64,000 bases of DNA from Azolla caroliniana (lineage: Eukaryota; Plantae; Polypodiophyta): NCBI GenBank assembly GCA_043228905.1, contig JBHGNT010000006.1, positions 8,246,001 through 8,310,000 of the forward strand, in the 5' to 3' direction. Shown here piece after piece: positions 1 to 23,319 of the stretch. A program made the translations under genes and the position numbers. The notes under the pieces were generated by a model. That model was not told where the DNA came from, searched no databases, and saw only the letters and a list, made by a program, of their open reading frames with translations. Numbering within the stretch: the stretch's first letter is position 1; the number at the start of each line of letters is the position of its first letter.

Positions 1-1796
1 ATGTAAATATGTACATAATACATACAATAAAATTACATATTACATACATATATACATACACAAATGCATATATACATACAAAACACACAAAAATAAATTA
101 CATATTATATATATGTATGTATACACATACACATACATATTAACACCTAAAGGCTAAGATTACATACTATATATATACAAATCTTCATACTTACAAACAA
201 GTTACATATATTACATATATATATACACGTGCACACACATAAATAAATTAGATATTACATAGCATATATTACACAATATTCAAATTTAGACATACATAAA
301 TTACATATATACATATATAGATACATAGATAGATATACATATTACATATGTACATACATATTCCACATATCACCATATATATATATGTATAGATTATACT
401 AGACCATACAAACCACAATACTTATATATATACATACTACACACACACACATTAGATATCCATATGTATACTTACACATAAATAAATTAGATATTACATA
501 GCACATAATCCATACCTATTACACAATATACAAATTTACACATGCATAAATTACATATATACATACATAGATATATTACATATGTACATACATATTCTAC
601 ATATCACCATATGTATAGATCATACTAGACCATACAAACCACAATACTTACACACACACACACACATTAGATATATGTATACTTACACATACATTGGATA
701 TATACATGCATATTACATACATATTACAAACATACATCCATATACGAGCCATATACATATGTACTAAACATGAAAATATCCCAAAAATATAGATACATAT
801 ATACACGTACATACATTCATACATTTACATATATATGACCACATACACACACATACATACATACATTAGATATATATGCACATATTACAAACATATTCAT
901 ACTCATTAAATCATGTATATTGACATATACATATATGCATACACATACATACATATTCCACATATCACCATATATATATGTACATATGCCTACAATGTTA
1001 AAAGTTTTACAAACATACATCCATACACATATATACATACATTACATGCATGCATACACATAAATATGTTACATACACATACATACATACATTTCATCAC
1101 AAACTACAATACATACATGTATGCTTACACATACATAAATATTATGAACACACTCATGTATGCATAGTACACTATTACACATACAAACATACATGCATTG
1201 CATATTACATATATATACATATGTACATGCATACATGTACATTCATGTGTCTACATACATACATTGCATATGCATATATTACAATCACATTCATATACAT
1301 TGAATCATGTACATTGTCATATATATGCATACACGTATGTACATTCATACATGGACATACCTATATTCATTTATATATTGCTACTGTCTACATATACATA
1401 AATTAGATATATACATAAATATTACAATCACACATCCATACACATTGAATCATGTACATTGTCATATGGATATATGCATACACATACATACATACATGTA
1501 TGTATACATACATACATTAGATATGGATATATGCATACACATATGTACATTCGTATATGGACATACATATCTTCATTTATACATTGCTACACATACATAC
1601 ACATATATACATCAGATATCTACATAGATATTGTGCATATATTACAATCACACATCAATACACATTGAATCATGTACATTTGCATATGCATATATGCATA
1701 CACATACATACATGACATATGCATATATGCATACACATATATACATTCGTACATGGACATACATATAGTCTTTTATACATTGCTACATGTAAATAC

Positions 1797-1828
<32 letters not shown>

Positions 1829-2642
1829 TAGATATATACACACATACGTATATATATATACACCTACATATAGTCTTCTATACATACACACACATTACAT
1901 ATGGATATATGCATACACATATGTACATTCGTACATGGACATACATATATTCATTTATACATTGCTACATATACATACACATATATATACATAGATATTA
2001 TGCACATATTACAATCACACATCCATACACATTGAATCATGTACATTTGCATATGCATATATGCATACACATACATACAATCTTTTATACATTGCTACAT
2101 GTACATACACATACATACATATTACAAACAAATATCCACACCCACACACACACATACAAATATACATACATTACATATTACATATGTACATTCATGTTTA
2201 TTCATTGAAGCATACATATTTTATGCATACATTACATATATATATATTCATTCATTCATGCATGCATGCATACATTATGTGCACATACATACATAACATA
2301 CATTCATACTAAACATACATTCAAATATTCATGTTTTTTTATTTAGATATTTGTTGCCTCCTCCTTTGCTCCCTCCTCTTCTCTGCTCATTTCTGCGATT
2401 GCTTCTTCTCCCCTTCTTTTTGTCCTCGTTTTGCCGCCGCCTCTGTTCTCGTTTTGCCGCCGCCGCCGCCGCTCGCCTTGTCGTGCCGCTTTTGCTCACC
2501 ATTATTCTCTGTTGGGGCTGCCACAACTACTCTACAAATATTTTACAGGTACACATAAGTACAAACATAAACCAACACATAAATTCTTAGCCACACACAC
2601 ACACGTACATACATACATACATACATACATACATACATACAT

Positions 2643-2708
<66 letters not shown>

Positions 2709-3020
2709 GCCATACATACAATAAACGAAATTAATACATTACAATACAATATGTACATATATACACACATACCTATATACACATACATACACATTTACAC
2801 ATATAACACATACATACAATACAATATGTACACACATACATACATACACATGGAATACAAACAATACATACATAAACACACAAACACATGTGTAGAATAC
2901 ATATACATACACACATGTACACACATATATGTTGTATGGAACATACATACACACATACCTATATACACTTACATACATACACATTTACACATATAACACA
3001 TACATACAATACAATATGTG

Positions 3021-3090
<70 letters not shown>

Positions 3091-3678
3091 AAGAATATGC
3101 ATACACATATGGACACATATATATGTTGTATGGAACATACATACACACACACAAACATAACACACAACACACACATGAAATACATATAATAAATGCAATT
3201 AAATAAAATGCAATACAATATGTACATAATACACACATACCTATACAACATGCATACAATCCATACAATACCTATATACACATATAATGCACACATACAT
3301 ACATACATAAACCAACACATAAATTCTTAGACACACACACACACACGGGCCATACATACAATAAACGAAATTAATACATTACAATACAATATGTACATAT
3401 ATACACACATACCTATATACACATACATACACATTTACATATATAACACATACATACAATACAATATGTACACACATACATACATACACATGGAATACAA
3501 ACAATACATACATAAACACACACACACACATGTGTAGAATATACATACACACATGTACACACATATATGTTGTATGGAACATACATACACACATACCTAT
3601 ATACACTTACATACATACACATTTACACATATAACACATACATACATACACATTTACACATATAACACATACATACAT

Positions 3679-3739
<61 letters not shown>

Positions 3740-3975
3740 GAATATACATACACATATGGACACATATATATGTTGTATGGAACATACATACACACATACC
3801 TATATACACATATATACACTTACATACATACACATTTACACATATAACACATACATACAATACAATATGTGCACACATACATACATAAACACACACACAT
3901 ACGCACACGTGTAGAATATACATACACATATGGACACATATATATGTTGTATGGAACATACACACACACACACAA
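1..3975. repeat. Low-complexity CA/TA/CATA microsatellite-like field with larger duplicated blocks
   Basis: Dominated by ACAT/CATA/(CA)n; long (CA)n runs near 2645-2706, 3028-3087 and 3681-3735; block GGGCCATACATACAATAAACGAAATTAATAC recurs at ~2707 and ~3347. The H/T/Y/I- or C/V/M/Y-rich ORFs here are repeat artefacts. Confidence 0.9.
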
Positions 3976-4297
3976 ACGTATTGTTGAGGATGGGACTGTG
4001 ATTAAGCAGAATGTTAAGTGGGATAGCTCAAATGATTTACTTTTGGGTTTTTGTGGGCTGAAGTCATCCAATCATCAATGTGTCTCATCATGTATGATAA
4101 AGGTGGGTGACTCTAATGCTGGTTATGAAACCATTGTTAGCTCCTTTAAAGACTATGTGGTTGGACACTATGCTAGGGTGTTAATTGCGAATCCTCTTCA
4201 CCCTAAACTTCCACGAGTAGTATTGGTTGTACAATGTACATGTAATTGCTTTGATACAGATTTTGTAAAATGCCAATGGAATGAAGTGGAAACTTTA
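3974..4297 (+). pseudogene. P-element-like DDE transposase, 5' fragment (interrupted by LTR retrotransposon)
   Basis: Translates RIVEDGTVIKQNVKWDSSNDLLLGFCG...QWNEVETL, similar in pattern to the first-catalytic-Asp block of P-type transposases (DExxIK...D...GF). Ends exactly at TSD CTTTA and joins 13568 in frame. Confidence 0.7.
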
Positions 4298-4754
4298 TGT
4301 TACCCGGACCCGGACAGTCAGTTTTACCGAACTGGTGGGAAAGCGTCGAAAACAGAGTCGGTTCGGATCGACTGTTCGGATCAATGACTCAGCAGTAAAA
4401 CGAAGAGAACTAAGTTAGTTAGATAATTTTGTAAATCTTGTTAGGGAGTAGGAATAGTTCTTGATGAGAAAAGACCTTCGGTATACCTATAAAAGGGAAC
4501 CAAAGGCATTGTAAGAAAGGTCGTTTTATTTAGTAATATAAGTTTAAGTTAGGAATATCTTGTACGGATTCTGTGTTTCTCTGTTGTCTATGATCTTAAG
4601 TGCAAGCTTCCTAATTTATAACTAAGTAACGATCACGGTAATTACCGATTAATATAGCATAATTCCGTTCGTAAAACACAATTCCTTGTTAGAACGTTGA
4701 GTAGCGACGTTCACTCTTCTGTATCGGTAATAGTTAGTAATTAGCCGATTAACA
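4298..4754 (+). repeat. 5' LTR of element 1
   Basis: TGTTACCCGG...GATTAACA; TATAAAA at 4488-4494; I see only one mismatch to the 3' LTR by eye (ACTGG vs ACAGG). Confidence 0.97.
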
Positions 4755-4765
4755 CAGAAGAATTT

Positions 4766-4778
4766 TGGCACGCCCGGT
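4766..4778 (+). promoter_or_regulatory. Primer binding site, tRNA-Arg-like (TGGCACGCCCGGT)
   Basis: Starts with TGG, 11 nt after the 5' LTR; resembles the TGGCACGCCC tRNA-Arg PBS known from Tat-type elements (tRNA identity from memory). Confidence 0.7.
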
Positions 4779-4813
4779 TACATCTGCAATTAAGCAGAGA
4801 ACAATTCGAATGG

Positions 4814-7363
4814 ATGTCGTATGAAGAGGAGGCACCGGTCAGTTGTAAGCGCCCTCGTACAAGGTCAGTTACGAAGGTAGTGCAGCAAGCGTTCATTACG
4901 CAAGAACAGCCGGAATCGAGCACAAAGTGGTCGAAACTTCCTGACTTATCCGATCAATTACCTTCAGACGAAAAACAGACGGAAGAGGTATCGTTTTACG
5001 ACATTTGGGACGATATGCCTTATACTTATTCTAAGTTCCGGGAAGGAACAGATGCGGAAGCACATGTTAGGGATTTCTTAACGACATGGGAGATTAACCA
5101 TGGAGCTCAGCGATTGTCGGCAAATGCCGAAGATAAGTCAAAAATCGCTGAGTTTGTCTTATCATTAGACGGATATTCCGCTAATTGGTTTGCGCAGAAC
5201 GGTCTTCAAGGATTTCCATCCTTCGAAGTATTAACTAGTAAATTTTTACAATTATTTCATCAACAAATTCCGCAGAAGGATTTGATTGCGCAATTTTATG
5301 CGTTATATCAAGAAAAAAATGAAACAGTATCTCAGTTTGTGATACGATTTCAGAACTTACAGCTTCAGATTTCAAGACCGATTCCGGATAAGGAATTAAA
5401 AGAAGTCTTTCTAGAAGCTGTAAAAGAACCATTAAGGACGACATTGAAAGTGTTCGATTTTCGAAATCAGACTATCGAACAAGTCATTGATAAAGCAATA
5501 GAAATGGGTCGACCACCGGTCAATGTTCAGAGTATGGACATGTCGGCATTACACCGTACATTACCAACAATGGAGGAGTTACAATTTCGACAAGCAGTTC
5601 AATGCACCACTTGTTTAAATACGGGGCATTCGGCAATTGACTGTACGTTAAGAACACATTGTACAATATGTCATTCAAAATTACATTCCGTAGAACAATG
5701 TGAATATAATCTGCTTAATAAGACTACGGCGTCAGTACGACAAATTTTTGCTGACAATGGTTACCAAAATAACACTAATCTGTTCAATGGTTATCAAAAT
5801 AATAATTTTTCACAAAATCAGCAAAATGTACAACAGAACCCGGTTCTACAGCCAAATCAGATCTTTTCACAACAAAATATGCAACCCACTCAAGTGACTC
5901 AAGCATTTCAACCAGGTTTTGCTCAATCCAACCCACCATTCGTACAGAATCCGAATCAATATTTTCAACAAAATAATCAAAGTTTCCAACAAGGTAATCC
6001 ACCATTTCAAGGGTTTCAACAGAACTGTCCGAATGTGCAACCGAATTCTACATTTCAACCAAATCCGGCATTTCAACCGGGTAATATGACTTTTCAACAT
6101 AATACTCAAACTGTTCCACAAAATAATCAAATGTTTCAACAGAGTAATTTTCCGCCAAATCAGGAGTTCGGGATACCACACAATATAGCACAACCAAATG
6201 ATAATACTGAACAATTTAGGCCGAATAGGTATAAAAACAAGAGATTTTACAAACCAAAAGCTACACGTCAATACCAACAAAACCCGAATGGTAATGAAGA
6301 GCAGCAATTTAATAACGGGCAATTTGCACATGGAGAGACCAGTGCAACATTTGTGCCCACTTGTTACATTTGTCGACAACTAGGCCATTATGCTAATCAA
6401 TGTCCGGTTAAAGGAAAGGGTCCAGCAGTTAATATGGTAATACCGGAAGTTCAGCAAGTAACGACACGCAGCAAAAGCAAACAATCAGAGTGGGAAATTC
6501 AGGAAGAAGTTCGGAAGGCGGCAAAGGAATGGGTGGATGAAGCAAATCAAAGTAATGTGAATCGAATGTTACAAGACAATAACATTGACCAGGACATCGC
6601 TGTACAACAGTCATTGGAGAATAAGGAACAGGAAGAAACTTGGAAACTGTTGGCTGATTGCCAAGTGTCATTACCACTTAAGGGCTTACTTAAGTTAGTA
6701 CCAAGGTTTACAGAAAAAGTGGCAGCATTAATTGCATATAAAGGTTCCGAACAAATAGCAGTACACTACAATCAGCCAAGTAATAACCCTTCGATCATGG
6801 ATGAACAGAATCCGTCTATTAAGGTAATACTTTACGGGCAAGAAATCGGAAATGTGATTATAGATGGAGGCTCGGGTGTTAATGTGATTAACAAAACTAC
6901 ATGTGAAAAACTGGGAATCACGGAATGGGAAGCATGTCCGTTTTGGTTACGAATGGCAGATACAAGTACGGTACGACCGATTGGTTTGCTTCGACAACTG
7001 GATGTAATAATCGGGGGACACAGTTTTCAGATTTCGGCAGTAATTTTGCAGTTAGAAACACAGGGAGCATACCCCTTGTTATTGGGGAGACCATGGTTAA
7101 AGACAACTAATATTAAACAAAATTGGAAACAAAATGTGCTAACATTTAGAAAAGGAAAAAACAAGGTCAGGATTCCGACGCACAACAAAGTGACAACAAG
7201 CAAACAGAGTTTACCTGTATATGCAGAAGCAGTTAATATGATGGAAGGATTGGACGAGGAAGAAGAAAGTCAGTATTTTGATGATAATCAAAAAATCATC
7301 CCTCTATTTGAGGTAGATATTTTGCAAGCATTAACACCATATGTAGACTCACACCATATGTAG
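4814..7363 (+). CDS. gag: Gag-protease polyprotein (849 aa)
   Basis: Retrotransposon gag core (LYQEKNETVSQFVIRF); three CX2CX4HX4C knuckles (CTTCLNTGHSAIDC, CTICHSKLHSVEQC, CYICRQLGHYANQC); aspartic protease IIDGGSGVN...LLLGRPWL. Confidence 0.93.
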   Translation: MSYEEEAPVSCKRPRTRSVTKVVQQAFITQEQPESSTKWSKLPDLSDQLPSDEKQTEEVSFYDIWDDMPYTYSKFREGTDAEAHVRDFLTTWEINHGAQRLSANAEDKSKIAEFVLSLDGYSANWFAQNGLQGFPSFEVLTSKFLQLFHQQIPQKDLIAQFYALYQEKNETVSQFVIRFQNLQLQISRPIPDKELKEVFLEAVKEPLRTTLKVFDFRNQTIEQVIDKAIEMGRPPVNVQSMDMSALHRTLPTMEELQFRQAVQCTTCLNTGHSAIDCTLRTHCTICHSKLHSVEQCEYNLLNKTTASVRQIFADNGYQNNTNLFNGYQNNNFSQNQQNVQQNPVLQPNQIFSQQNMQPTQVTQAFQPGFAQSNPPFVQNPNQYFQQNNQSFQQGNPPFQGFQQNCPNVQPNSTFQPNPAFQPGNMTFQHNTQTVPQNNQMFQQSNFPPNQEFGIPHNIAQPNDNTEQFRPNRYKNKRFYKPKATRQYQQNPNGNEEQQFNNGQFAHGETSATFVPTCYICRQLGHYANQCPVKGKGPAVNMVIPEVQQVTTRSKSKQSEWEIQEEVRKAAKEWVDEANQSNVNRMLQDNNIDQDIAVQQSLENKEQEETWKLLADCQVSLPLKGLLKLVPRFTEKVAALIAYKGSEQIAVHYNQPSNNPSIMDEQNPSIKVILYGQEIGNVIIDGGSGVNVINKTTCEKLGITEWEACPFWLRMADTSTVRPIGLLRQLDVIIGGHSFQISAVILQLETQGAYPLLLGRPWLKTTNIKQNWKQNVLTFRKGKNKVRIPTHNKVTTSKQSLPVYAEAVNMMEGLDEEEESQYFDDNQKIIPLFEVDILQALTPYVDSHHM

Positions 7364-7372
7364 ACTCACACG

Positions 7373-10190
7373 ATGGAAGAAGTGCCAATCGATAAGCAAA
7401 CAATAAAAGAAATACGAATGCAACAAGAAGCTACAGATAAGGAATTGCAGGTATCTCAGAGAGTGCAAGCCTCAGCATTGGAGGAGATTGATTTGGCAGG
7501 AGTAGAGGATGCTGAAAGAAAAACAATCTTGATTGCTAGAGATTTGACGGTAAATGACAAACAGACATTAACAACATTACTATTACAATATAAAGATGTT
7601 TTTGCATGGTCCTTTGACGATATGAAAGGTCTGGATCCCGCTTTTTGTCAACATCAAATCAATTTGCATAAAGATGCAAAGCCAGTACAACAACGCAGGT
7701 ACAGGTTGAATCCGAATTATGCTATCAAAGTAAAAGAAGAAATCGATAAACTCTTAAAAGTAGGATTTATTCGACCCGTCAAAAAATCAACATGGCTGAG
7801 TCCGATAGTAGTAGTCCCGAAAAAGAATGGGAAAATTCGTGTATGTGTGGATTACAGAAAATTGAATGCAGCGACAATTACGGATGCGTTTCCGTTGCCA
7901 TTCACAGATGGGATATTAGATGCAGTAGCGGGACATGAAATTTATAGTTTCTTGGATGGGTTCAGTGGGTACAACCAAGTACGGATGAATCCGGAAGATC
8001 AGGAAAAGACAGCTTTCGTCACAGAATGGGGTGTCTTTGTGGCAGTAGTCATGATGTTCGGTTTAAAAACAGCTCCAGCTACATTTCAGCGGGTAATACA
8101 GGAAATATTCGGGGAATATATTCCAGCTTTCATGCAGGTGTTTTTAGATGATTTTGCAGTATATAGTCGGAAAGCTGATCATTTTGAGCATTTACGGCTA
8201 TGTTTAGAAAAATGTCGAAAAGGGCGTCTTAGTTTAAATCCAGCCAAATGCGCATTCGGAGTAATGAGTGGTACATTACTTGGGCATATTGTCAGTCAAG
8301 AAGGGATTGCAGTGGACCCAGATAAAGTTAAAGCAATTATTGAGGCAACACCACCAACAAATGCTAAAGCTCTAAGTAGATTTTTGGGTCAAATTCGGTG
8401 GCACAGTAGAATGATGAGATATCTAGCAGACATTGCTATTCCGTTACACACAGCAGTACACAAAGTTCCTTTTATATGGACAAGTATAGAACAAGATGCG
8501 TACGAATGTCTCAAGAAGATGCTGACGAAGGTTCCGGTAGTTCAACCACCGGACTGGAACAAACCATTTCATGTTTTCGTCGATGCGTCGGACATTGCCA
8601 TAGGCAGTGCTTTAATGCAATTATCCGAACCAAACTGGTATAGGCCGGTATACTATGCCAGTAGGAAACTTTCGTCGGCCGAAAGAAACTATTCAACAAC
8701 CGAAAGAGAAGCTTTGGGAATGATATATAGTGTGAACAAATTTCGACATTACCTTTTGGGAGCACAGCACGCGATTGCTGACTATCTCAGTCGGCTTGAG
8801 TCTGGAGAAGAAGCGGTTGGGGTTAAAGATGATTTTCCAGATACTCAATTATTTCGGGTGGAGGCAGTAAAAGCACATGAAGTGAATGAGGAAAAAGAGG
8901 ATGAATGGATTTCCGAAATGACGATATTTCTATCAACAGGAATTCCGGCCGAACACATGTCGACAAATGAAAGAAAAAGAATTGCAGTACGAAGTCGGAA
9001 TTTTTGTTTATTTAATGACATGTTGTATCATAAAGGAGCGGATGGAATATGGCGAAGGGCAGTACGAAAATTTGAAAAATCAGCCATATTAACAGAGTCA
9101 CATTGTGGAATTGCTGGCGGTCATTACGCAGGAGAAGCAACAGCCAGAAAAATATGGAATAGCGGGTTATGGTGGCCAACGGTGATGAAAGATGCTAACG
9201 AGTACTGTAAGAAATGCGATTTGTGTCAAAGAATGGGGCAACCAACCGAAAAGGATCGAATGCCTTTTCAACCGGTTTTACCTCTTGAGCCATTTCAGAA
9301 ATGGGGCTTAGATTTTGTTGGCCCATTCAAACCAGCAGCTGCAAGAACCGGTAATCGATATATCATAATTGCGACTGACTATTGCACAAAATGGGTTGAA
9401 GCAAAAGCTCTCAGGGACAATACGGCAGCATCCACAGCAAAATTCCTGTATGAGTATATATGGTGTCGATTCGGTTGCCCAATAGAATTGGTAAGCGATC
9501 AAGGCACTCATTTTATTAACAAGTTAATTAACGAATTAACCAATTACTATGCCGTAGTTCATAAGAAAAGTACGCCTTACTATCCCCAAGCTAATGGATT
9601 GGCAGAATCGACAAATAAAACAATTCAAACAATTTTAAAGAAGATAGTGAATGAAAATCGTACTGATTGGGATCAAAAGTTAAATAGTGCATTATGGGCA
9701 TATCGTACTTCGTACAAAACATCCATTAAATCAACACCTTTCCGAATGGCATTCGGACTCGAAGCCGTTATGCCAATCGAATTTCAAATTCCGACACTTC
9801 GTATCCAAGCAACGAATAAGTTAAATGAAATAGAATCGGAGCAGATACGCAAAGAGGCTTTATTAGTATTAGAAGAAGAACGGATTCAATCAATGTCAGC
9901 ACTAGAACACAAGCAGAGACAAATCAAGGCATTCGTAAATCGACATCGAAGGAAATCGGAAGAGCAATTCGAAATTGGGAAACCGATATTGGTATTCCAG
10001 ACGAGAATGGGACTTATGCCTGGGAAACTCCGGTATAGATGGACAGGTCCAGTATGGATAATTAATAGTAAAAATGGTACGTACCAACTGGGATCATTAA
10101 CCGGAGAGGTTTTACCAAAATGGGTAAATGGATTTCGGCTTAAACCGTATTTGGGAGATATGCCGGTAAATCCGTTTATTCAAACGGAAG

Positions 10191-10195
<5 letters not shown>
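7373..10195 (+). CDS. pol: Pol: reverse transcriptase, RNase H (internally deleted), integrase (940 aa)
   Basis: RT motifs CVDYRKLN, LDGFSGYNQ, MMFGLKTAP, FLDD; RNase H VDASD...EREAL; integrase HHCC and WGLDF...SDQG...NGLAESTN. Confidence 0.95.

Positions 10196-10234
<39 letters not shown>
10194..10234 (+). repeat. Poly(A) tract (~41 nt) starting in the pol stop codon
   Basis: Uninterrupted A run beginning within TAA. Confidence 0.9.
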
Positions 10235-10236
<2 letters not shown>

Positions 10237-10415
10237 AACTAACTCACTCAATAGTTCTTGTCAAATGCAGAAATACAATCTTGCCATAACAGTATGAATC
10301 GACTATAAATAGAAAGAGGAATTGCATGATTATTAGTAACAAGTACAACCACTACACGTAGAGTGAATACTAATTAATTCCTACATTAATAGCAATTACT
10401 ATTCTTTAAGTCATC

Positions 10416-13061
10416 ATGCATAAATTAATATCTTTAAAGCATATTTCTGTATCGTCTGTATCGCCAAAACAACAGAAACGAGTGCAGATATCGAAACAGT
10501 CTGAGCCTCCTTCGTGCCCTAGTTCGCCCAAACTCTGTTTTTCTGATTTTCATCGCTACAGAAACTGTGCAGATCTGCAACTGTCATCGACAAGTGATTC
10601 AGAACAAGGAAACACAGAAGTCATGCCGATTCCTGTATCGGAAGAACTGCGATTGTGGCTTCATGAGAGAAACTTACAAGGTTTCATCAAAGTAGCAGAA
10701 GCGGAACCTCATCCGCAGGCGGAAGAATTGGTACAACAAATAGACATCACCAAAATCACCACAAAGAAAATACGAAATGCATTACAGATGCCAAGAGGAG
10801 GTTTTGAGGCAGTTAAAAAACCTTCATCAGAAGCACTCCAATCGTATTTCGGGGAATACTCACCCTCGGCAAAAGCATATCAGACTTATGGAGGTCGGGA
10901 TGAGTTTTTTCATGAAGTGGCGAGGTTTTTACTAGAGGTGGGATTTGTCAGTCCTCGTTTTTATTGTATGCCGAAAAAAAGGGCTGGGTTTATTATAGCC
11001 GCATATGAAAAAGAGGATTTCAACTGGCCACTATTGTCGGGGGAAGCTCTGAGAGAGCAGCTACAAGGGGTAAAAACAGGAAAACCGATGAAGCAAATTT
11101 TTGGTCGTTGGTTATCAGTATTGTTTCCGATTCAAGAATCGGAAACTCCTGTTCAGTCAAGAAGACCACCGATAATACAAGCACCACGAAGACACCGACA
11201 GCTAGTACATGAAGAATGGATAGAAGAAGAATCGGCACATGCCGATAATATACAAACAAATATGTCTCAGTCGGAACCACCTAGACCAGAGAATTCCGAA
11301 AACAGACAACCAGAAACAGTTGACAATTTGAGAAACAAGCAACAGCCGACAGAAAATCGACAACAAGCAGAGAAGATGAGACAAAGAACAAGGATTAAAC
11401 AAAAGGCTAATCGGCAATTCCAACCAGAAAACAGTGAGGGATCAGCACCGAAAAGGCAACGCACAAATGAAAAGTCGAATACGCCTGTGGTAACAGAAGT
11501 ACTAACACCAGGGGATGAGAGCATTTCGACACAACCTCACCAAGGACAATCTTCAAAAGTAGCCATTCGGGAAGCACATGGATACTTGGATATCCCACCA
11601 GCAGCACATGAATTAGCTGCCATTTTGCAGTTCGGAACTTCATACGAACTGGTTGAATGGTTGGCTAAAAGATTGACAGAAGTATCAGAACGGCTGGCTC
11701 AAGAACATAATGACCGAATAATGATACAGAAAGCCCTACGAGGAGTGTTGGAACCTCAAGAAAAAGCAGAGATAGAGAAAATAGGCCGGAAAAGAAGTGC
11801 ACAGCATAGAGGGGAGGCTATTGAAATGCCACCATTACATGAAGCACTGGTCGAAATTCATAAAGAATATGAAACGGCACGCAAAGCAGCCAGTGATATG
11901 GCTGAAAGATACAAAAGTGTATCAGCATCGGCGGAGGTGCTGAAGCATCAGTTTTGTAACATACAAGCAGAAAATAAAGAACTAAAGGAAAGTCTAAACA
12001 AATGGGAAACACAGGCACGGCTTATGGTGTCGGAGTCAGAATGGCAACAGAAATTAGAGGATGCTGAGAAAGCACGACAAGCAGAAACAACAAGGGCCAA
12101 CAATGCAGTATTTCGAACTACAGAATTAGAAAAACAAATAGAAACCATTCAGAATGGTCAATACAAAGCTCTCGAAGAAAAAAATCAAGTAATAAACGAA
12201 TTACAGAAAAATCTAGAAGAAGCTAAGACGGCCAATCATACATATACCGAACAAATTGAAGAATTCGAAAGGTATATAGTGTCACAGGAAAGTCAATTGA
12301 CAGAAAAACAGCAGAGTCTTGAAGAAGTCAACAGAAGAATGACGGAACAGCAGGAGGAATGGAGTAGAGAGAAATCGGCATTCGAACAACAACTGGACGA
12401 AATTCGGAAGATAGCGGAACAAAGACGACTGGATATATATGTAGTCGAATCCAAATTAATGCGAGCTGAAAGTGAGAACCGAACCACTATTACGGATTTA
12501 CAGAAAGAGTTGCAAACCGCCCAATACGTCGCAAGCATCACTAGGGACAAAGTGCACCACATCATAGGTAAACATCGAAACCTAGCAAAGAAACTGATCG
12601 ATGAATCCCTTGCGCAAGGATGGAAGTTATGGACAGCACAAGCGGCGGAATTACAGATATTGCGTGCCGACAAAAATAACCGTCAGGTACAAGGTGCAGG
12701 TTTTTTTAAAATGGCACAAAAGGATATTGACAATATCCAAGAGGATATCATGAAAGATATGGATGAAATTGCGGCATTTTACAGAGAAGAAATTCAACGT
12801 ATTATGCAAGAATTCGACAAAAATGATATAGGCACTTCCGTCCAGTTGGATAAAATCGAAGCCGAAAGAACCAGCAAGACTCCTGGTATTCAAGCTTCCG
12901 GAAGAAGTGAACCAGAGCAGCCAACCGAATCACAACCTGCTCCGGAGGACTGTGACACAGACGAAGATGAAGAGGAAGATATAGGTGGAATACATCCAAG
13001 GCCAGATGAGCCTTCGATTTTTGATATTCTGAACGATTCGGATGAAGAGCTACAGGAATAG
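10416..13061 (+). CDS. Accessory ORF3 of element 1 (881 aa): globular N-terminal region, disordered middle, long coiled coil, acidic tail; function unknown
   Basis: Intact long ORF between pol and 3' LTR; E/K/Q heptad-rich segment ~aa 480-790; no obvious transmembrane segment; TATAAATA at 10304-10311 upstream. Confidence 0.85.
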   Translation: MHKLISLKHISVSSVSPKQQKRVQISKQSEPPSCPSSPKLCFSDFHRYRNCADLQLSSTSDSEQGNTEVMPIPVSEELRLWLHERNLQGFIKVAEAEPHPQAEELVQQIDITKITTKKIRNALQMPRGGFEAVKKPSSEALQSYFGEYSPSAKAYQTYGGRDEFFHEVARFLLEVGFVSPRFYCMPKKRAGFIIAAYEKEDFNWPLLSGEALREQLQGVKTGKPMKQIFGRWLSVLFPIQESETPVQSRRPPIIQAPRRHRQLVHEEWIEEESAHADNIQTNMSQSEPPRPENSENRQPETVDNLRNKQQPTENRQQAEKMRQRTRIKQKANRQFQPENSEGSAPKRQRTNEKSNTPVVTEVLTPGDESISTQPHQGQSSKVAIREAHGYLDIPPAAHELAAILQFGTSYELVEWLAKRLTEVSERLAQEHNDRIMIQKALRGVLEPQEKAEIEKIGRKRSAQHRGEAIEMPPLHEALVEIHKEYETARKAASDMAERYKSVSASAEVLKHQFCNIQAENKELKESLNKWETQARLMVSESEWQQKLEDAEKARQAETTRANNAVFRTTELEKQIETIQNGQYKALEEKNQVINELQKNLEEAKTANHTYTEQIEEFERYIVSQESQLTEKQQSLEEVNRRMTEQQEEWSREKSAFEQQLDEIRKIAEQRRLDIYVVESKLMRAESENRTTITDLQKELQTAQYVASITRDKVHHIIGKHRNLAKKLIDESLAQGWKLWTAQAAELQILRADKNNRQVQGAGFFKMAQKDIDNIQEDIMKDMDEIAAFYREEIQRIMQEFDKNDIGTSVQLDKIEAERTSKTPGIQASGRSEPEQPTESQPAPEDCDTDEDEEEDIGGIHPRPDEPSIFDILNDSDEELQE

Positions 13062-13103
13062 GCGTGGGTTCGCCGGACAAGGTCCTGGCCCACGGTCGTG
13101 CCA
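13062..13103 (+). other. tRNA-3'-end-like hairpin at the position normally occupied by the polypurine tract
   Basis: GCGTGGGTTCG-CCGGACAAGGTCCTGG-CCCACGGTCGTGCCA, then AG, then the 3' LTR TG. Confidence 0.65.
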
Positions 13104-13105
13104 AG

Positions 13106-13562
13106 TGTTACCCGGACCCGGACAGTCAGTTTTACCGAACAGGTGGGAAAGCGTCGAAAACAGAGTCGGTTCGGATCGACTGTTCGGATCAATGACTCAG
13201 CAGTAAAACGAAGAGAACTAAGTTAGTTAGATAATTTTGTAAATCTTGTTAGGGAGTAGGAATAGTTCTTGATGAGAAAAGACCTTCGGTATACCTATAA
13301 AAGGGAACCAAAGGCATTGTAAGAAAGGTCGTTTTATTTAGTAATATAAGTTTAAGTTAGGAATATCTTGTACGGATTCTGTGTTTCTCTGTTGTCTATG
13401 ATCTTAAGTGCAAGCTTCCTAATTTATAACTAAGTAACGATCACGGTAATTACCGATTAATATAGCATAATTCCGTTCGTAAAACACAATTCCTTGTTAG
13501 AACGTTGAGTAGCGACGTTCACTCTTCTGTATCGGTAATAGTTAGTAATTAGCCGATTAACA
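13106..13562 (+). repeat. 3' LTR of element 1
   Basis: Direct repeat of 4298-4754, followed by TSD CTTTA. Confidence 0.97.
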
Positions 13563-13567
13563 CTTTA

Positions 13568-15525
13568 TGGGAAAAACACCTCTCCACAAGTATTGGGCCA
13601 ATTGTTGGACATGCATCTGATGGAGATAGTAGGAGAAGAAAGATTATGCTTCAAGATTACTTAACCCCAAGCATATGCTTAAGATATAAATTGCCTTGGG
13701 ATGGTTGGATCTTCACAGGTCAAATGCATAATAATATGGTAAGTTGTCTTCATGATCAAGATTTCATCCATAATGGAAAGAAACTTGTGAATGCACTAGA
13801 TAATCCCTCAAGACAATTAGTAATTGGGGATGTATGGATCACATTGAATCATGTGTCTTTGGTATATAATAACTTCTCTATTGATGCACATGGCTTAAGG
13901 GAATGTGATATTACGAGAGAAGATAGACAAAATTGGGCTGGAGCTCAAAGAATTGCAAGTAGAAATGTTACTAATTGTTTAAAGATGTTATACCAAGGTG
14001 GAGAAGGTGTCAAAGTAAGAGAAAGAGGCGCTTTGGGAACACATGTATACTTGCATATATTAGGTGACTATATTGATATTTTTCTATCCCCTCATGAGAG
14101 CTTATTCAAGTGTGTGGTACTTGCATCTAAAGTTGCATTCTTCTTTCAAATATGGAGATTATGGAGTCTAGATAATCCAATTTATAACTTAAAAAGTAAT
14201 TTCATTAGTCGAGAAACATTTTTGGATGTACAAATATCTTGTCACTTTGTAGTTTTACTTATAAAAATGTTTCGTGACTTTTATCCACAACTAGAATGTC
14301 CATTGCATCTCACAGGGTCTGATGGAGCTGAGATATTTTTTAGTAAAATAGGGGGAATTATTGGTATGGAGCGTGCGTTTGATATACCAGATGTTTTGCA
14401 TTGTAGTGGAAATGTAAACAAGCTTGCCAAATTTGAGTGCATTGATAATGGATTGGTTTTTCCAAGAGCTCATAAGAAGCAAGAATCAATACGGTCTAAA
14501 CTCAATTTCATGCATGACAAGCCTCTTGCAAACTTAAAAAACTACATTGATATCTCAAATGATGATCAACTTGTTTTTGCACTTAAAGAAGGTTTAAAAG
14601 AAGCCCAAATTTTATGTGAGTCGTTAAATATGAAGCCTAAACACAATGGGCAATGGTGGAATTATCCCGGGATTGAGACAAAACAATCCTTGAGTTATAT
14701 ATATGGAGAGAAAGATGATGAAGAATGTGTTGAACACAATAAAAACTTCACAATGCATGAATGTGTGGAGAATGATGATGAGATTGTAATAAGTGAAATT
14801 CGTCGTGAATTAGATGCTATATTGGATGACAACAATGTGAACTCTAAAGTCTCTTCATTTGTTCAAGTGGATGATAAGATTATATTTAAATCAACACTTG
14901 TGAGTCATCTAAATGGTAATCCAACATTGTCAAAGGATAGACTCACATGTGTAAGAGAAGGCGTCTTCTACTCATGTGAGAATGCAAATGATTTCCTAAA
15001 TGGAAATGGGAACCTAATTGGGATTGGTTTAGATTGTGTTGTATTCTTTACTAAAGAAGATGTTAATTCAACAAGACTGAAAAGAAAAGGAATATCAAAT
15101 AAAAATGTTGTTTGGTACTTAGGACGAGTACAAAGGATGCGAAGAAAGATTGGAAATAAATTTGTGGAGTATAAGAGAGGAATTGACTTGATGGATAGGC
15201 TTGAAGATGTTCAATTACAACTTGGTTGGTATAGGAAGATTAAGGGGAGTAGATTATTTGCATATGATTTGACAGATATTAAAATGGTTGACTTTGAGTC
15301 AATTATTGGATTAACGAACCTCACATATAATGCAAAATGTGATAACTATCTGTTAGATGAAAGCGATTGTAAAGTTTTCAACGATTTTATTTTGGAAATG
15401 AAATCCAGGTATGTATGTATAAGTTGTTTTGAATATATACTTGCATACATGTACATATATAATATATATTAAAGTAACTTAATATTTATGCTTTTTATTT
15501 TAACAGGAAAAGGAGAAAAGAGTAG
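13568..15525 (+). pseudogene. P-element-like DDE transposase, 3' portion (open frame 13568-15408; probable intron 15409-15506; short last exon to TAG 15525)
   Basis: Motifs GHASDGDSRRRK (2nd Asp), DQDFIHNGKKLVN (DxxHxxK), DRQNWAGAQRIAS and LTGSDGAEIFFS (catalytic Glu block). GT..AG splicing would end the protein KSRKRRKE. Confidence 0.75.
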
Positions 15526-16631: not shown

Positions 16632-17087
16632 TATTAGAGATCTAGGTACTAAAGTAAGCTTAAGATAAGGATAAACTAATGATAGATAGAAAGGAGAAAG
16701 AGAAAGAAGGGTGCCGATCCACCCGACCACCCCTGAGCGAAGGGATCGAGACAGACTCGAGCCTCGATCGGCGTCCCATACCACCGTCGTGGCGTCGAGT
16801 CGTACCCGGTGCTGGCGCGCTCGCTACAAGAGTTGACCCACCATAAGAGCAGAGTCTCGATGTAGTAAAAAAGATGATGAAATGAGGGTAGCTAGGCCTC
16901 TTATTTATATTGATACCCAAGGCCCCCAGGCAAGTTCACACTTTACCTAATGGGTTTTCTCAATCCCGAGGATTAAAAGTAATCCTCCCCTTCTTTACAC
17001 TCTCGTTTAACCCTCACACTTATCCACGTGTATAGAATACTACGGTAAATTCTCACCACGGGATATTAAATGGTCATGCCCGTAACA
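16632..17087 (-). repeat. 3' LTR of element 2
   Basis: Minus strand TGTTACGGG...CTCTAATA; preceded by PPT AAAGAGGGGGAG (~17090-17104). Confidence 0.95.
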
Positions 17088-17089
17088 TA

Positions 17090-18365
17090 CTCCCCCTCTT
17101 TAAAACATTGCACTCTTGCAATGGAAAGTTAGAGAAGTTAGTTCTAAGAGTATTTTTGCGTTCCCATGTGGCATCTTTTATTGATTTATCCATCCATTTT
17201 ATTTTAAATTCTCGGATTTCTTTAGTATGTAATTTTTTTGTTTTAACATCGAGAATTCTTTCTGGTACATGTGGTTTAGAAGATAATTCTTCAGAAGTAA
17301 CTAGAGTTTCAGTTGTAACAGTATTGTCGCCAGACCTAGAAGTTCTTTTAGACGACTCACATGAAAGACTGGATGAATTCCGACACCATCGGGAAGAGCG
17401 AGACGATAGGTTGATGACCCAATGCGTTTGAGGACTGTAAAAGGTCCACAAAACCGTGGGGCTAACTTAGCGCACTTACCCATAGACAATGTCTTAGAAT
17501 TGTGAGGTACACGTAAAAATACCTTCTGTTCAGGGTTGAATACACAAGGTTGCCTATGATGGTCGGCATAAAAACGCGCTCTATCTTGAGCTGTTTTTAT
17601 ATTATCTCGTGCAATATGCAACATATCTTGCATATCCCGAAGAAAGTTTTGCGTACTTCGCAACTCATCATGATGTATATTAACATCAATCAGGGCTCGT
17701 GGCTGAAAACCATACATCAACATAAAAGGACTATATCCCGTCGACGTATGCTTGGAGTTGTTATAAGCCAACTCCAAAATTGGTAGATAACGTTCCCATT
17801 TTGTTGGTTTTGCACCAACGTATGCTCGAAGCATGTCCTCAATAATTTGATTTACTCGTTCTGTCTGTCCATCGGATTGAGGATGATCCATGGAGCTCAT
17901 GCTCAACGTAGTTTCTAACTTCTTAAAGACTTGCGTCCAGAAGTCACTAGTAAACTTTGGATCTCGATCACTCACGATATCCATCGGTAACCCATAAAAA
18001 CGAAATAATTCGTCAACGAATTGGTAAGCCAATTCAAGAGTTGTTACCGTGGTTTTAGTAGCAATAAATCTGGCCATTTTAGTTAGTCGGTCAAGCACAA
18101 CCCAGATGGCATCATGGCCTTTTTGGGTGCGAGGAAGGCTAACAATAAAATCCATGGATATGCTTTCCCACTTATTATTGGGAATGTCCAAGGGATGTAA
18201 AAGTCCTGCGGCTTTAAGTCACTCGGCTTTGTTAAGCTGACACTGGTGACATTTAGTCACATAGCTATGTATGTCAGGACACATCTTAGGCCAATAAAAT
18301 TGAGTGGAGATGAGAACGAGTGTACGATGTATTCCAGGGTGCCCTGCTGAGGGTGCATCATGGCA
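17090..18365 (-). pseudogene. Integrase plus type-II chromodomain of element 2 (frameshifted)
   Basis: WESISMDF...SDRD...DGQTERVN; GPF motif; IHPVFHVSRLK; in another frame PERILD...EFKIKWMDKSIKDATWE. Confidence 0.9.
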
Positions 18366-19700
18366 TTAAAAAAGAATCCTCTTTTTGACCTCGGGTAAAT
18401 CTGGAACACAAACCTTCCCATTACAGTAGAGCAAACCGTTAGCAATGTGGAAGTATTCCTTCGAGGATGTGGTGGTGTCTGTTCCAAACTCAACTCGTGC
18501 CCAGTATTTTGCAAAATAACTGTCATCATGATACTTTCCTCGAAGGTGATCACAAAGATCTGATGTTATTTCAGTGAAGCTAAGCATGTTAACTTCACGG
18601 ATGCGACTTAGTGCATCAGCGACAGTGTTCATGGAACCTTTATGATATCTTATGGAAAAATCAAAGTCCTGGATGAGATCAGCCCATCGTGCCTTATGAC
18701 CTTTCAGGTCTTGTTGGTCACAAAAATATTTCAAGGACTCGTGGTCCGTAGTTACCACAAAGCGATTTCCATAAAGATAATGGCGCCATGTTTTGAGCGC
18801 ATGTATAAATGCAAATAATTCCTTTTCTTGAACGGTATACCGACATTGAGCAGAATCAAGTTTCTTACTCTCGAATGCTATTGGTTTACCATCTTGATAT
18901 AAGACAGCACATATAGCATAATCGCTTGCATCGGTTTCAACCTCAAAAGGTTTTGAAGGATCAGGTAAAAGAAGTGAAGGAGCCTTGCAAACCAGGTCCT
19001 TGAGTTCCTTAAAGGCGAGGTCTAGTGTAGCATTCCACACAATAGGTTTTGTAGACTTACGCGTTTGACCTTTTAAAATATCAGTAAACGGAGTCGTCAA
19101 TTGGGAGTAATTACGAAGAGACTTTCGCAAAAACCCGACAAAACCAAGGAATGATCGAACTTCTCGAATATTCCGAAGAGTGGGCCAAAGCTTGATTTTC
19201 TCAATGCGAGAAGGATTAATTTCAACTCCTCTAGCGCGTACGAAATGTCGTTTTAGGAACATCGTCCTCACTTATTCATATTTGATGGTAGCTAGTACGG
19301 AGATCAAGTTTCGTAAAATACAGAGCTCCCTGGAGACGGTCAATTAGATCGTCAGCCCGGGGCAATGGGTACGAATTCTTGATCGTCACTTTATTCAAGC
19401 GTCGGTAATTAATACACATACGCCATGTGCCCTCTTTCTTTTTTACCAAGAGAACTGGTGCACCCCATGGAGATTTACTATAACGTATATAACCCATTCG
19501 TAAATAGTCCTTGAGTTGCTTAGATACCTCATCTTCTTCGGATCGACTTAAGCGATACGGAGGTATACTTATTGGTGCAACACCAGGTACAATATCTATA
19601 CGATGGTCTATATTACGTTTAGGAGGTAAGCCATCAGGTAGTTCACTTGGAAAAACATCATGAAAATCATTTAAGATTTCATCAAGTTGTTGTTGTTCAA
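18366..19700 (-). pseudogene. RT (core deleted) and RNase H of element 2
   Basis: [11 protein letters not shown] and [11 protein letters not shown], then a junction near 19235 directly into the connection region with no YxDD block; RNase H ETDASD, EKELFA, TDHESL. Confidence 0.9.
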
Positions 19701-19841
19701 AATATGTTAATTGAACCGAGACATTATCGATATTATAAACGTGAATGTCCAGATCAAGTACTCAATAAAATAGAGTAGAACAAGACAACTCGGATATTGA
19801 TGGACACGAGGAAACAATCGAGATGGATTGTTTTTTACACA

Positions 19842-21101
19842 TTAAATAAAATGAGTACAATCGTTCAGTACAAATATAATTGAATGATGAACCCAATCAA
19901 TAGATAAAGAAGAGTTTTTATTATAAAACCAGGGATAACCAAGTATTACATCGGTGGTACAAAGACTCATTACATGGAAGTCTACTTCCTCTATATAATT
20001 ATCAATAGAAATTCCTAATGAATGAATCGCCCCGTTGATGTATTGTACTCTTCCATCAGCCAAGTGCACCGTGTAGGTGTGATCACTTACGGTGGGTTGG
20101 ATTCCCCATATCTGAACCAAACGATCATTCACAAAATTGTGTGAGCTTCCTGAATCAAATAAAAATTGTACGGGAGAGCCATTGATATACCCGTTTGCAC
20201 GTAGTAAATCATTAGGACCCAATACATAGTGAGGGAAAGAACATTGACAATTACTTAAATGATGTGTATAGACCTGAAGGACATTAGGAATCTGACCTTT
20301 ATGGTCTGCAGCTTTAGCTTTGTTGTTGTGCTCTTTCCGTTGGAGCTTTCGACATTGATCTTTTGTATGACCCTTCTTTTTGCAGAATACGCAAAAAGGA
20401 TGTTGTCGCTTACAATCGCGATCCAGGAATTCGTTGGGTGTCTTGCGTTTCCCAACGAATTGCGACTGCTTAGTCCCGGGCGCTTCGTTGGGTTTGTTGT
20501 GGTCCTTCTTCGAAGTGCGTTGATAGCGAAGAACTATTTCAACGGCCTCTTCGAAGGATTTTGGATCCTTATCGTGCACTATCCAATGATAGTCTGAATT
20601 GGGGATGCCATTGACAAAACAAGCTATCAACCAATTGTCCCCTTCTAGACCCGATTTTTGGATTTGGGTTCTAGCATGGTGAACATAGTCTTCTAGCGAG
20701 GAAAATTTCCTGCTAGAGAGGTTCATTAAAGCTTGTGTTGCCTCGGTTCGAGAGGGAGGTTGCAGAAATTGGCCCTTAAAAACCGTGACAAAATCTGTCC
20801 AGGTATCGGGCAATTTCCCCATAGTACGGAGCCCACGCCACCAAGCGGCGGCCTTACCCCCGAGTTCTCGGCCGACATATGCAATCTTCGTACTATCTGG
20901 CGTGGGATAGAGCTCAAAATGAGACTCCCATCGTCCCAGCCATGTGCAGATTGCTTCTTCGGTTCTTTCCTTTTTGTCTCCCGTAAATGGCTTAACGACA
21001 AATGATGGTTCACCTTGTCGCTCATCAGGTTTATTAGTCTCACGTTGTAGACTAATGACACGTGCCTCAAGAGCACTCTGAGATTGCCGAAGTTCGGTCA
21101 T
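19842..21101 (-). CDS. gag: Gag-protease of element 2
   Basis: Gag core (AAAWW), CVFCKKKGHTKDQC knuckle, protease LFDSGSSHNF...DVILGYPW; ends in a premature stop. Confidence 0.88.
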   Translation of the reverse strand: MTELRQSQSALEARVISLQRETNKPDERQGEPSFVVKPFTGDKKERTEEAICTWLGRWESHFELYPTPDSTKIAYVGRELGGKAAAWWRGLRTMGKLPDTWTDFVTVFKGQFLQPPSRTEATQALMNLSSRKFSSLEDYVHHARTQIQKSGLEGDNWLIACFVNGIPNSDYHWIVHDKDPKSFEEAVEIVLRYQRTSKKDHNKPNEAPGTKQSQFVGKRKTPNEFLDRDCKRQHPFCVFCKKKGHTKDQCRKLQRKEHNNKAKAADHKGQIPNVLQVYTHHLSNCQCSFPHYVLGPNDLLRANGYINGSPVQFLFDSGSSHNFVNDRLVQIWGIQPTVSDHTYTVHLADGRVQYINGAIHSLGISIDNYIEEVDFHVMSLCTTDVILGYPWFYNKNSSLSIDWVHHSIIFVLNDCTHFI

Positions 21102-22849
21102 CTGTTGAGCGGTGAAACTAAGGTATTAGGTTATTTGTGTCAAATACATCTCAGTGGACATTTGTCCAAGAGGATTCCCTTGAGTTCCTTCCGCTTGAGC
21201 GGATGACATCGGGTCTTTAATTTGAGCCATTAAAGATTATTTCTGGAAAAGAAATAGGATAAGGTCAGAGAGATAGTCATAACATCATGTCGTGATGTAA
21301 ACATATCATGGGCAAACATTAATCGATATCATGATCTCACGTCAATACCCCTCTAGACATATGAGATGAGGTTCAAGATCAGGTTACTATGGTAACACAA
21401 AGGTGTTTTAAAAACCATGGGGGTGACAAATAAATGTCTTTCCCTGATCTCTATATCGATTTTTTCATGGTGGCTCCCCGAGGCTCAACCATGTATGTTC
21501 ACGTCATGAATAGTTTATACACGAAAAAAATGTTAACAATAAACTATGTTTCGGTGCCCACATATGTGGTTTCGGCCCTTTAAGTCCTATTACGAGGACC
21601 CCGAGGTGCACTTAGACCTTAAGTCTAAACATGTGTTATAGTCATATGTATCAAGGATGTTGTATGGTCTTGGTCATATTTGAACTCGAGACCTCGAGAA
21701 CAAATACATTAAACACTTGAGCCAACCAAGTGAGTTGCTCTTCTCGAATGCTTAATGCGTATAAGAGATATGCGAGGCATTTGATCATTTTTTTTTTTTA
21801 AAAGAACATATATGTCAAGGGTCCTTATTTCACCCTCATTTACCAAACTATGTTGGTACGTTACCTAACCTCAAGTCTCGTAATTACAATGGCATACGTC
21901 AAAGTGCAACCTAATGGTCAAGCCAAATGAGTCCTCGTTTCGTAGTAGGCCCACGTGGCCCATCACATGGTCACGTCATTACGAATGCCTCTCGTAAGAA
22001 TGAGCTCATGGTGGCATCGTATCCATGTAACGAGGGAGGGATGTTGGATACGTGTGTCATTGGAGCAACCTCACTTGAAGTGGGTCAAGCCCTACGTACT
22101 CAACATCATTATGACTATAGGCGTTTCTTTACGTAACGAAATCGGGGTCATCAACGGGGTTGTCAACAATAAAAAATTGTTGAAAAGGTATGGTGACAAC
22201 GCCATTCTCACAAAAATGTGAGGACGGCCACCAACATCCTTTTCCAGACAAGGACAACTTTCGATATAATCACGTAATAACGAATATACACATATGTTTA
22301 CTTATCACATATATACGATCAAATACATATATACGTGACCACATATGCCTATATTAAACATATCGTTATATTAAATAGCCACAAATGATGTGATCGAGAT
22401 ACGTAATCGAGGTAATACCTTTACGCACACGAAACATCCACAAATAAGAGATCATCGTAATACGCAACTCATCAAGGTATTAAACTCATACGCAAACGTA
22501 CCATATGTTCGTGAATGTAATACGTAATTGAGGTATTAACCTCGTACGCATACGACACTCATCACATATTATTTATATGTCAAACAAGTTATTGACCTCG
22601 TGCACATATGTAAACGTTTTAGATAATCAATTAAAGACCACTACAACATCATTGACTTAATGAAAAAAATTGACATATAAACTAAACACATGATTAGATG
22701 GGAGAAGAGAGAATAGAAAGAAAAAAATTTATTACGGAAAGAGTTGCCGAAGTTCTTTGTTGATCGTTGTCTGGATCAAGGCCGGCCACACATCAATCGA
22801 TCACCATCAATCAAAAGACAAAAGACAAACAAAGAAACATTAGTACATA

Positions 22850-22861
22850 GCTCTGATACCA
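22850..22861 (-). promoter_or_regulatory. PBS for tRNA-iMet (TGGTATCAGAGC)
   Basis: GCTCTGATACCA on the + strand, 2 nt from the LTR edge. Confidence 0.95.
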
Positions 22862-22863
22862 AA

Positions 22864-23319
22864 TATTCGAGAACTAGGTACTAAAGTAAGCTTAAGATAA
22901 GGATAAACTAATGATAGATAGAAAGGAGAAAGAGAAAGAAGGGTGTCGATCCACCCGACCACCCCCGAGCGAAGGGATCAAGACGGACTCGAGCCTCGAT
23001 CAGCGTCCCATACCACCGTCGTGGCGTCGAGTCGTACCTGGTGCTGGCGCGCTCGCTACAAGAGTTGACCCACCACAAGAGCAGAGTCTCGATGTAGTAA
23101 AAAAGATGATGAAATGAGGGTAGCTAGGCCTCTTATTTATAGTGATACCCAAGGCCCCCAGGCAAGTTCACACTTTACCTAATGGGTTGTCTCAATCCCT
23201 AGGATTAAAAGTAATCCTCCCCTTCTTTACACTCTCGTTTAACCCTCACACTTATCCACGTGTATAGAATACTACGGTAAATTCTCACCACGGGATATTA
23301 AATGGTCATGCCCGTAACA
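22864..23319 (-). repeat. 5' LTR of element 2
   Basis: Direct repeat of 16632-17087. Confidence 0.95.

Follow-up and report, generated by a model that had tools for sequence, protein, structure and literature searches.

A split tRNA-Arg-like 3′ end in place of the polypurine tract of a young Ty3/Gypsy element: a likely new route of plus-strand priming

How can an LTR retrotransposon start its plus strand when no polypurine tract (PPT) adjoins its 3′ LTR? The PPT is a feature that annotation tools score. According to the available text of PMC12789967 and PMC5371799, plus-strand priming is taken to rely on the PPT throughout the retroviruses and LTR retrotransposons; PMC12789967, a review from 2025, ascribes a PPT to all retroviruses, and in the extract of PMC6317226 it is present in most of the elements surveyed. 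The question is raised by the element at 4298–13562 of the window (that is, of the whole stretch of 64,000 nucleotides from Azolla caroliniana analysed here), in which this canonical feature of LTR elements is lacking beside the 3′ LTR. By its LTRs, its target-site duplication and its domain order, the element is a young Ty3/Gypsy LTR retrotransposon, and its features are as follows (L002 and L005 are related metagenome loci).

4293–4297: target-site duplication CTTTA, left copy (sequence and LTR comparison)
4298–4754, plus strand: 5′ LTR, 457 bp, TG...CA, with a TATA-like box at 4488 (sequence and LTR comparison)
4755–4765, plus strand: spacer of 11 bases from the LTR to the primer-binding site (5 in L005, 7 in L002; sequence)
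4766–4778, plus strand: primer-binding site (PBS) of 13 bases, the same in L005, of tRNA-Arg(UCU) type by proxy
4745–7363, plus strand: ORF1, stop to stop, with Gag (PF03732) and a zinc knuckle (PF00098) (Pfam)
7364–10195, plus strand: ORF2, with RT, RNase H and integrase (Pfam)
10410–13061, plus strand: ORF3, 883 aa stop to stop, no Pfam family
13063–13073, plus strand: motif part 1, copy of the 5′ strand of a tRNA T-stem and the start of the T-loop
13072–13089, plus strand: hairpin GCC-GGAC/AAG/GTCC-T-GGC, whose core (13074–13086) is a 13-base insertion
13087–13103, plus strand: motif part 2, 3′ strand of the T-stem and 3′ strand of the acceptor stem with CCA
13104–13105, plus strand: spacer AG of 2 bases before the 3′ LTR (2 bases also in L005 and L002)
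13106–13562, plus strand: 3′ LTR, 457 bp (LTR comparison)
13563–13567: target-site duplication CTTTA, right copy (LTR comparison)

The domain order given by Pfam is Gag, followed by RT, RNase H and integrase; a protease-like motif near the end of ORF1 was read by eye and has no Pfam match, and neither a chromodomain nor an archaeal-type RNase H was matched by Pfam in the element. Gag and pol lie in one frame with a single stop (7361–7363) between them, as in some Athila and Retand elements, and readthrough or splicing is possible. ORF3 has 528 fragmentary relatives and is 30% identical to the matching ORF of L005; no family was obtained for it from Pfam, its best Atlas match (0.86) is unnamed, and a weak Atlas lead points to DUF1985 (0.81). 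The N-terminal region of ORF3 (70–270) is the best conserved part among the 528 relatives, and its middle is charged, glutamine/glutamate-rich and coiled-coil-like by eye. The element is inserted into a long ORF (13553–15472), which has no Pfam match and is transposase-type by eye, and the insertion junction or the empty site is present in several public runs.

An earlier interpretation, made from the letters of this stretch and called here the sequence-only reading, had pointed to near-identical LTRs and an intact target-site duplication, and both are there: the two LTRs differ by 1 mismatch in 457 positions, and CTTTA stands on both sides. It had concluded that this copy went through reverse transcription recently. 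The copy is indeed recent, but its RNase H is broken: relative to the protein P0001, there is an in-frame gap of 44 residues at pol residue 466/467, which takes out one active-site motif despite the near-identical LTRs. Since the copy is recent and its RNase H broken, it was probably mobilised in trans by an intact relative, or damaged later. The active-site residues are kept in the intact relatives, so the lineage of the element has not lost RNase H.

At the left end, the PBS starts 11 bases past the end of the 5′ LTR, that is, it does not adjoin the LTR. The spacers between the 5′ LTR and the PBS are long and variable (5–11 bases: 4755–4765 in the window, 5512–5516 in L005, 918–924 in L002 and about 7565–7575 in L026), so that unusually long end trimming is implied in this group. 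Ten terminal bases at the PBS pair with the proxy tRNA-Arg(TCT), which is phage-borne and not the host tRNA. Beyond the tRNA match, the window (4766–4782) and L005 (5518–5534) also share the 4 bases that follow the 13-base PBS.

At the right end, the stop of ORF3 (13059–13061) is followed by the motif CGTGGGTTCGCCGGACAAGGTCCTGGCCCACGGTCGTGCCA at 13063–13103, then by AG, and then by the 3′ LTR. The bases before the 3′ LTR had been described as not purine-rich, and this was borne out, the purine share of the last 10, 15, 20, 30 and 44 bases being only 50–53%; the nearest purine run of at least 9 bases ends at 12979, within ORF3. A second LTR element of the window (16632–23319, minus strand), which serves as a control, carries a textbook purine tract at the equivalent position. 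The motif as quoted earlier, its CCA 2 nt from the LTR and its exact complement at the PBS (4765–4772) were all found: CGTGCCAA, at 13097, is the exact reverse complement of TTGGCACG, at 4765, over 8 bases, and occurs once in the element. The chance of a 7-base match to the start of the PBS is about 2.5e-5 at one place and 1.2e-4 within 5 places of the LTR.

As for the rest of the window, the control element has LTRs that are 97.4% identical, matches to a Ty3 capsid and a Tf2-like SH3 domain, broken frames and a textbook PBS, and a partial LTR element at 26673–27890 is its kin in the opposite orientation. A match of the hairpin pattern at 20910 lies within the gag frame of another element and was set aside as chance. 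Positions 1–4000 hold about 4 kb of degenerate repeats that derive from AC/AT microsatellites and have higher-order units, and two host-type genes are found, one with an auxin-inducible (SAUR) domain (32957–33775, minus strand) and one for a Haemolysin-III/PAQR-like membrane protein (45142–45876, plus strand).

What, then, does the motif copy? Positions 13063–13103 resemble the last 28 bases of tRNA-Arg(UCU), interrupted in the T-loop by a hairpin of 13 bases and short of one base, and the same single tRNA base is absent from part 2 of the motif in all three elements that carry it (the window element, L002 and L005). A match to a tRNA 3′ end, which the sequence-only reading had proposed, was found in the form of a phage proxy: two viral loci matched a pattern derived from motif and PBS, and ARAGORN calls one of them as tRNA-Arg(TCT), a phage-borne stand-in for the tRNA of the host. 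Its 3′ end, GTGGGTTCGAGTCCCACAGGGCGTGCCA, follows the motif base by base, save for the 13-base insertion and one deletion, and the window motif has mismatches to it at one base of the T-loop and at a place 8 bases from the end. In the tail of the L002 motif CTA stands where the others read CCA, and in L005 a T of the T-loop motif is changed to C. In the motif itself, ARAGORN found 0 tRNA genes and Rfam gave no tRNA match at E up to 10; only the split 3′ third of a tRNA is present, and there is no full cloverleaf.

A phage tRNA-Arg(TCT) in L107 (298–391) is 94 bases long, with an apparent insertion after the anticodon arm. A tRNA gene search in 49 of the 76 metagenome loci described below found none. 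Matches of the motif pattern, 28 in prokaryote genomes and 2 in viral contigs, were treated as chance, the viral two having neither hairpin nor LTR, and protein scans of viral contigs gave no relative.

When the proxy tRNA end is co-folded with the minus strand, the gains for the three motifs are −22.1, −32.3 and −26.5 kcal/mol, whereas the shuffles average close to −7, and for each motif 0 of 300 shuffles reach the real gain; these figures are partly circular, the proxy having been found by a motif-built pattern, and RNA:RNA energies are used in them for an RNA:DNA hybrid. In the predicted co-fold, both arms pair with the last 28 bases of the tRNA, the inserted stem loops out so that a three-way junction is formed, and one tRNA base is bulged.

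In the genomic RNA, a tRNA is unable to pair with a sense copy of itself; the complement exists only on minus-strand DNA. Read on that strand, the motif is a PBS that lies 2 bases from the LTR end, where the plus strand must start. The explanation that we favour, with a confidence slightly above even, is that on the minus-strand cDNA the motif forms a putative second, inverted PBS, at which host tRNA-Arg, or a 3′ fragment of it, would prime the plus strand. Annealing of a host tRNA, probably Arg, to minus-strand cDNA was one of the possibilities named by the sequence-only reading, and it has become the best-supported one through the conserved place of the motif, the match to the proxy tRNA and the PPT of the outgroups; it is the site that is observed, whereas the priming is what we infer from it.

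The course of events may be pictured as follows. The minus strand would begin at the normal PBS; RNase H would clear the template RNA, after which a second tRNA would anneal at the motif, probably aided by the zinc knuckle of Gag; RT would extend the CCA end of this tRNA across the 2 spacer bases into the LTR; and finally the tRNA would be removed by RNase H and the 2 bases trimmed by integrase. A tRNA:DNA hybrid is a substrate of RNase H, so protection must be assumed if a tRNA is to prime here, and the bulge and the hairpin may protect or orient the hybrid. The motif would be inherited via RNA and never recopied from a tRNA, and hence be free to drift; such drift would account for a motif less exact than the PBS.

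The same geometry can be read in another way, namely that the motif is a PBS for an antisense transcript from the 3′ LTR, or a target at which host 3′ tRNA fragments silence antisense RNA. It is true that the minus-strand reading gives textbook PBS geometry, 2 bases after the LTR end, and that 3′ tRNA fragments target PBS-like sites in mammals according to the extract of PMC7472051. However, the plus strand carries all three ORFs as well as the TATA-like box, the minus strand has no purine tract before the 5′ LTR, and the silencing version would leave the plus strand primerless; very little credence is given to this reading.

The hairpin bears on a further alternative. The fold of the motif proposed by the sequence-only reading is possible, but it is no more stable than shuffles, the 42-mer folding at −16.7 kcal/mol with a z of −0.05 against its own shuffles, and folding energy alone is uninformative. 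With respect to covariation, which had been put forward as a check, the 7 pairs of the hairpin are all paired in all three sequences, and two compensatory pair changes are found in the relatives; 68 of 500 shuffles of these 3 sequences do equally well, which is not significant, and the covariation across the three elements is no more than suggestive. The tRNA-like arms keep their resemblance to the tRNA, whereas the inserted stem changes in compensatory pairs; such a pattern would follow from pairing of the arms in trans and of the stem in cis.

It could also be imagined, and we regard it as rather unlikely, that the element makes the primer by itself: its own RNA would survive RNase H, and a T-arm-like hairpin with a tail of 10–12 bases still on the minus strand would mimic the tRNA–PBS complex. 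When the plus-strand RNA is folded, all three elements show the outer stem CGTGGG/CCCACG; the PBS pairs with only about 13 tRNA bases, so that the natural start complex would keep a folded T-arm like that of the mimic; and two T-loop-equivalent bases of the window have left the tRNA sequence with the cis pair kept. On the other hand, the tail of a self-made primer need not have the sequence of a tRNA, yet here it stays tRNA-Arg-like across families that cannot be aligned. Besides the unexceptional stability of the fold, the T-to-C change of L005 breaks the T-loop consensus, and a tRNA could still pair there on the minus strand.

For comparison, 76 metagenome loci were gathered by alignment of 23 pol proteins, i.e., by protein and not by motif, and the integrase tree has 38 rows (the window, 19 of the 76 loci and 18 proteins). 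In this tree the window element forms a clade with L001, L002, L003, L005, L006 and P0001 with a support of 100/100. The closest named proteins are those of the fern Adiantum and the liverworts Riccia and Marchantia, beside whose elements it stands in a supported clade of its own. The clade is set apart from the seed-plant elements, the rows containing no labelled Athila references, and is separate from the Tat-like loci, whose labels were inferred from their PBS.

Only two of the close loci, L005 and L002, extend to an LTR, and in both of them the motif stands 2 bases before the TG. Their pol DNA is 70–72% identical to that of the window, and their LTRs give no meaningful alignment with those of the window (best E 0.025). 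An HMM of the three motifs, searched against the 76 loci and the window, matches only L002, L005 and the window. The sequence-only reading had considered that sister copies might have a normal PPT here; there is none at that spot in L002 or L005, and the motif is conserved. Among the more distant loci, the two outgroups with an inferable LTR start, L020 (54% integrase identity) and L026 (52%), have an ordinary purine tract before it, the LTR starts being inferred from collapsed single-LTR contigs, like the LTR edges of L002 and L005. Since the outgroups carry an ordinary PPT, the motif looks derived from a PPT-bearing ancestor. Judged from these comparisons, the motif is real, conserved and lineage-specific.

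The relatives also bear on whether the motif serves the genomic RNA, by pairing with the PBS so as to join the two ends or to gate tRNA loading, with some other RNA fragment priming the plus strand. The sequence-only reading had offered such pairing as an alternative; the 8-base complement is real and perfect in the window, the predicted duplexes reach −23.1 kcal/mol in the window and −37.1 kcal/mol in L005, and end-to-end bridging through the tRNA is known in Ty3 according to the available text of PMC5371799. However, the idea is weakened by L002, the PBS of which is not complementary to its own motif tail: the PBS, identical over its 13 bases in the window and L005, has a different sequence in L002, while the motif stays. 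Pairing of this kind would also make the 5′ part of the T-arm and the hairpin superfluous and would provide no primer at the LTR edge, and we hold it to be very improbable. That L002 keeps the motif despite its different PBS counts in favour of tRNA priming, with the reservation that L002 and L005 are collapsed single-LTR contigs in which the combination of PBS and motif could be chimeric. The complement of the L002 PBS matches 52 phage loci, 36 of which have a tRNA call there (27 Arg-TCT, 4 Asp, 3 Trp, 1 Ser and 1 Glu); because these calls are mixed, the claim is limited to a difference in PBS sequence.

Contigs from 8 public DNA runs (6 studies, with four organism labels and two metagenomes, one run being perhaps the source of the window itself) were also compared, and the motif is covered by contigs of all 8 runs. 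Dozens of contigs match only about 13063–13117 and diverge on both sides, those running on unlike the window on the two sides numbering 22 and 22 for X12, 31 and 13 for X16, and 14 and 15 for X6. That is to say, other families share the motif without its flanks. Positions with a variant at 2% or more amount to 7 of 43 in the motif against 5 of 12 just upstream (13051–13062), and only contigs at least 80% alike were compared, so that the variation is understated. In the loop, the third base (13081) varies freely. Position 13096, a T in the window, is often A, which is the majority in 4 of the 8 runs, about half in 2 and the minority in 2; with A, a G-T wobble with the tRNA would form on the minus strand, where the T of the window gives a mismatch, and this is a weak hint that pairing with the tRNA on the minus strand is favoured.

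Against the motif being a neutral relic of tRNA or PBS capture, with unspecific RNA fragments priming the plus strand, stand its fixed spacing, the compensatory changes and a conservation far better than that of the LTRs and flanks; the copies are imperfect, as a relic would be, and we consider this origin highly improbable all the same.

A displaced PPT deserves somewhat more attention, and is still improbable in our view. A purine tract just upstream would prime, and the motif would be a 45-base extension of the cDNA end which is trimmed at integration, like the PBS spacer of 5–11 bases, whose length implies long overhangs at the right end. Purine-rich sequence just upstream of the motif is indeed found in several families, which counts against tRNA priming: among the single-contig loose ends listed in X1 and X10, 4 of 5 are purine-rich upstream of 13063–13067, and in L002 a run of 7 purines stands 7 bases before the motif. 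L005, however, has no purine tract beside the motif, and the runs of the window are only 5–6 bases long, form the acidic end of ORF3 and vary among the sisters. The upstream runs may represent codons of ORF3 or what is left of the ancestral PPT, and a displaced tract leaves the tRNA match and the fixed spacing of CCA plus 2 unexplained.

In summary, we think it on balance probable that the window element belongs to a non-seed-plant Ty3/Gypsy clade without a PPT, in which host tRNA would prime both strands and a DNA three-way junction would unwind the tRNA through its T-arm and shield it from RNase H. The tRNA-primed plus strand is likely a new priming route; no description of one was found in the literature searched, most subscription journals and the Repbase reports lying outside that search. 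If true, it would add a third way of starting reverse transcription in LTR elements to PPT priming and minus-strand self-priming, and a successful clade of many families without a PPT would show that plus-strand priming can be rewired to host tRNA. It would offer a natural test case of how RT distinguishes primers from RNase H substrates, and a second step of replication would come under the control of tRNA supply and of 3′ tRNA fragments. The site is short, with 41 bases, and the predictions (primer identity, start point and hairpin) are sharp, so that it lends itself to direct tests with oligonucleotides and RT.

Among known systems, the Mauriceville and Varkud retroplasmids are RT elements with a self-encoded tRNA-like CCA end, which lies at the 3′ end of the template and starts the minus strand; unlike these, the window motif is internal and abuts an LTR. 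The motif is like the bipartite PBS of Ty1 and Ty3, in which two separated segments bind the acceptor stem and the T-arm of the tRNA; however, as described in the available text of PMC5371799, those sites have the tRNA complement in RNA and serve the minus strand, whereas the complement of the window motif is present only on minus-strand DNA, at the start of the plus strand. Sequence derived from tRNA within an LTR element is also known from the Helenus TRIMs, but according to the extract of PMC10886601 these are non-autonomous and non-coding, carry the tRNA copy inside the LTR as a promoter and have a PPT, and the window element differs in all of these respects; for the Helenus copy no complementarity to the PBS is reported in that extract. 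In a Culex element, tRNA copies stand at the PBS region as an insertion (PMC3286476, in part).

With regard to plant lineages, the available text of PMC6317226 permits a comparison with the non-chromovirus groups Athila, Tat/Ogre/Retand, Phygy and Selgy, which share with the window element an extra ORF and the lack of a chromodomain; the lack of a chromodomain after the integrase also separates the element from chromoviruses. By the same source, tRNA-Arg priming is common in Tat, Ogre and Retand, yet the element does not belong to the Tat group (TatI–III, Ogre, Retand), as it lacks the additional archaeal-type RNase H. The 5-bp target-site duplication is shared with Athila, whose PBS is dominantly of tRNA-Asp/Asn type and not of Arg type as here, while Phygy and Selgy have 4-bp duplications and a tRNA-Trp and a tRNA-Ala PBS, respectively (PMC6317226, in part). 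In its LTRs, its PBS for tRNA, its Gag-RT-RNase H-integrase order and its 5-bp target-site duplication, the element follows canonical LTR replication as outlined for Ty3 (PMC5371799) and retroviruses (PMC12789967) in the portions available; unlike canonical LTR elements, it carries a split sense copy of a tRNA 3′ end in the place of the PPT.
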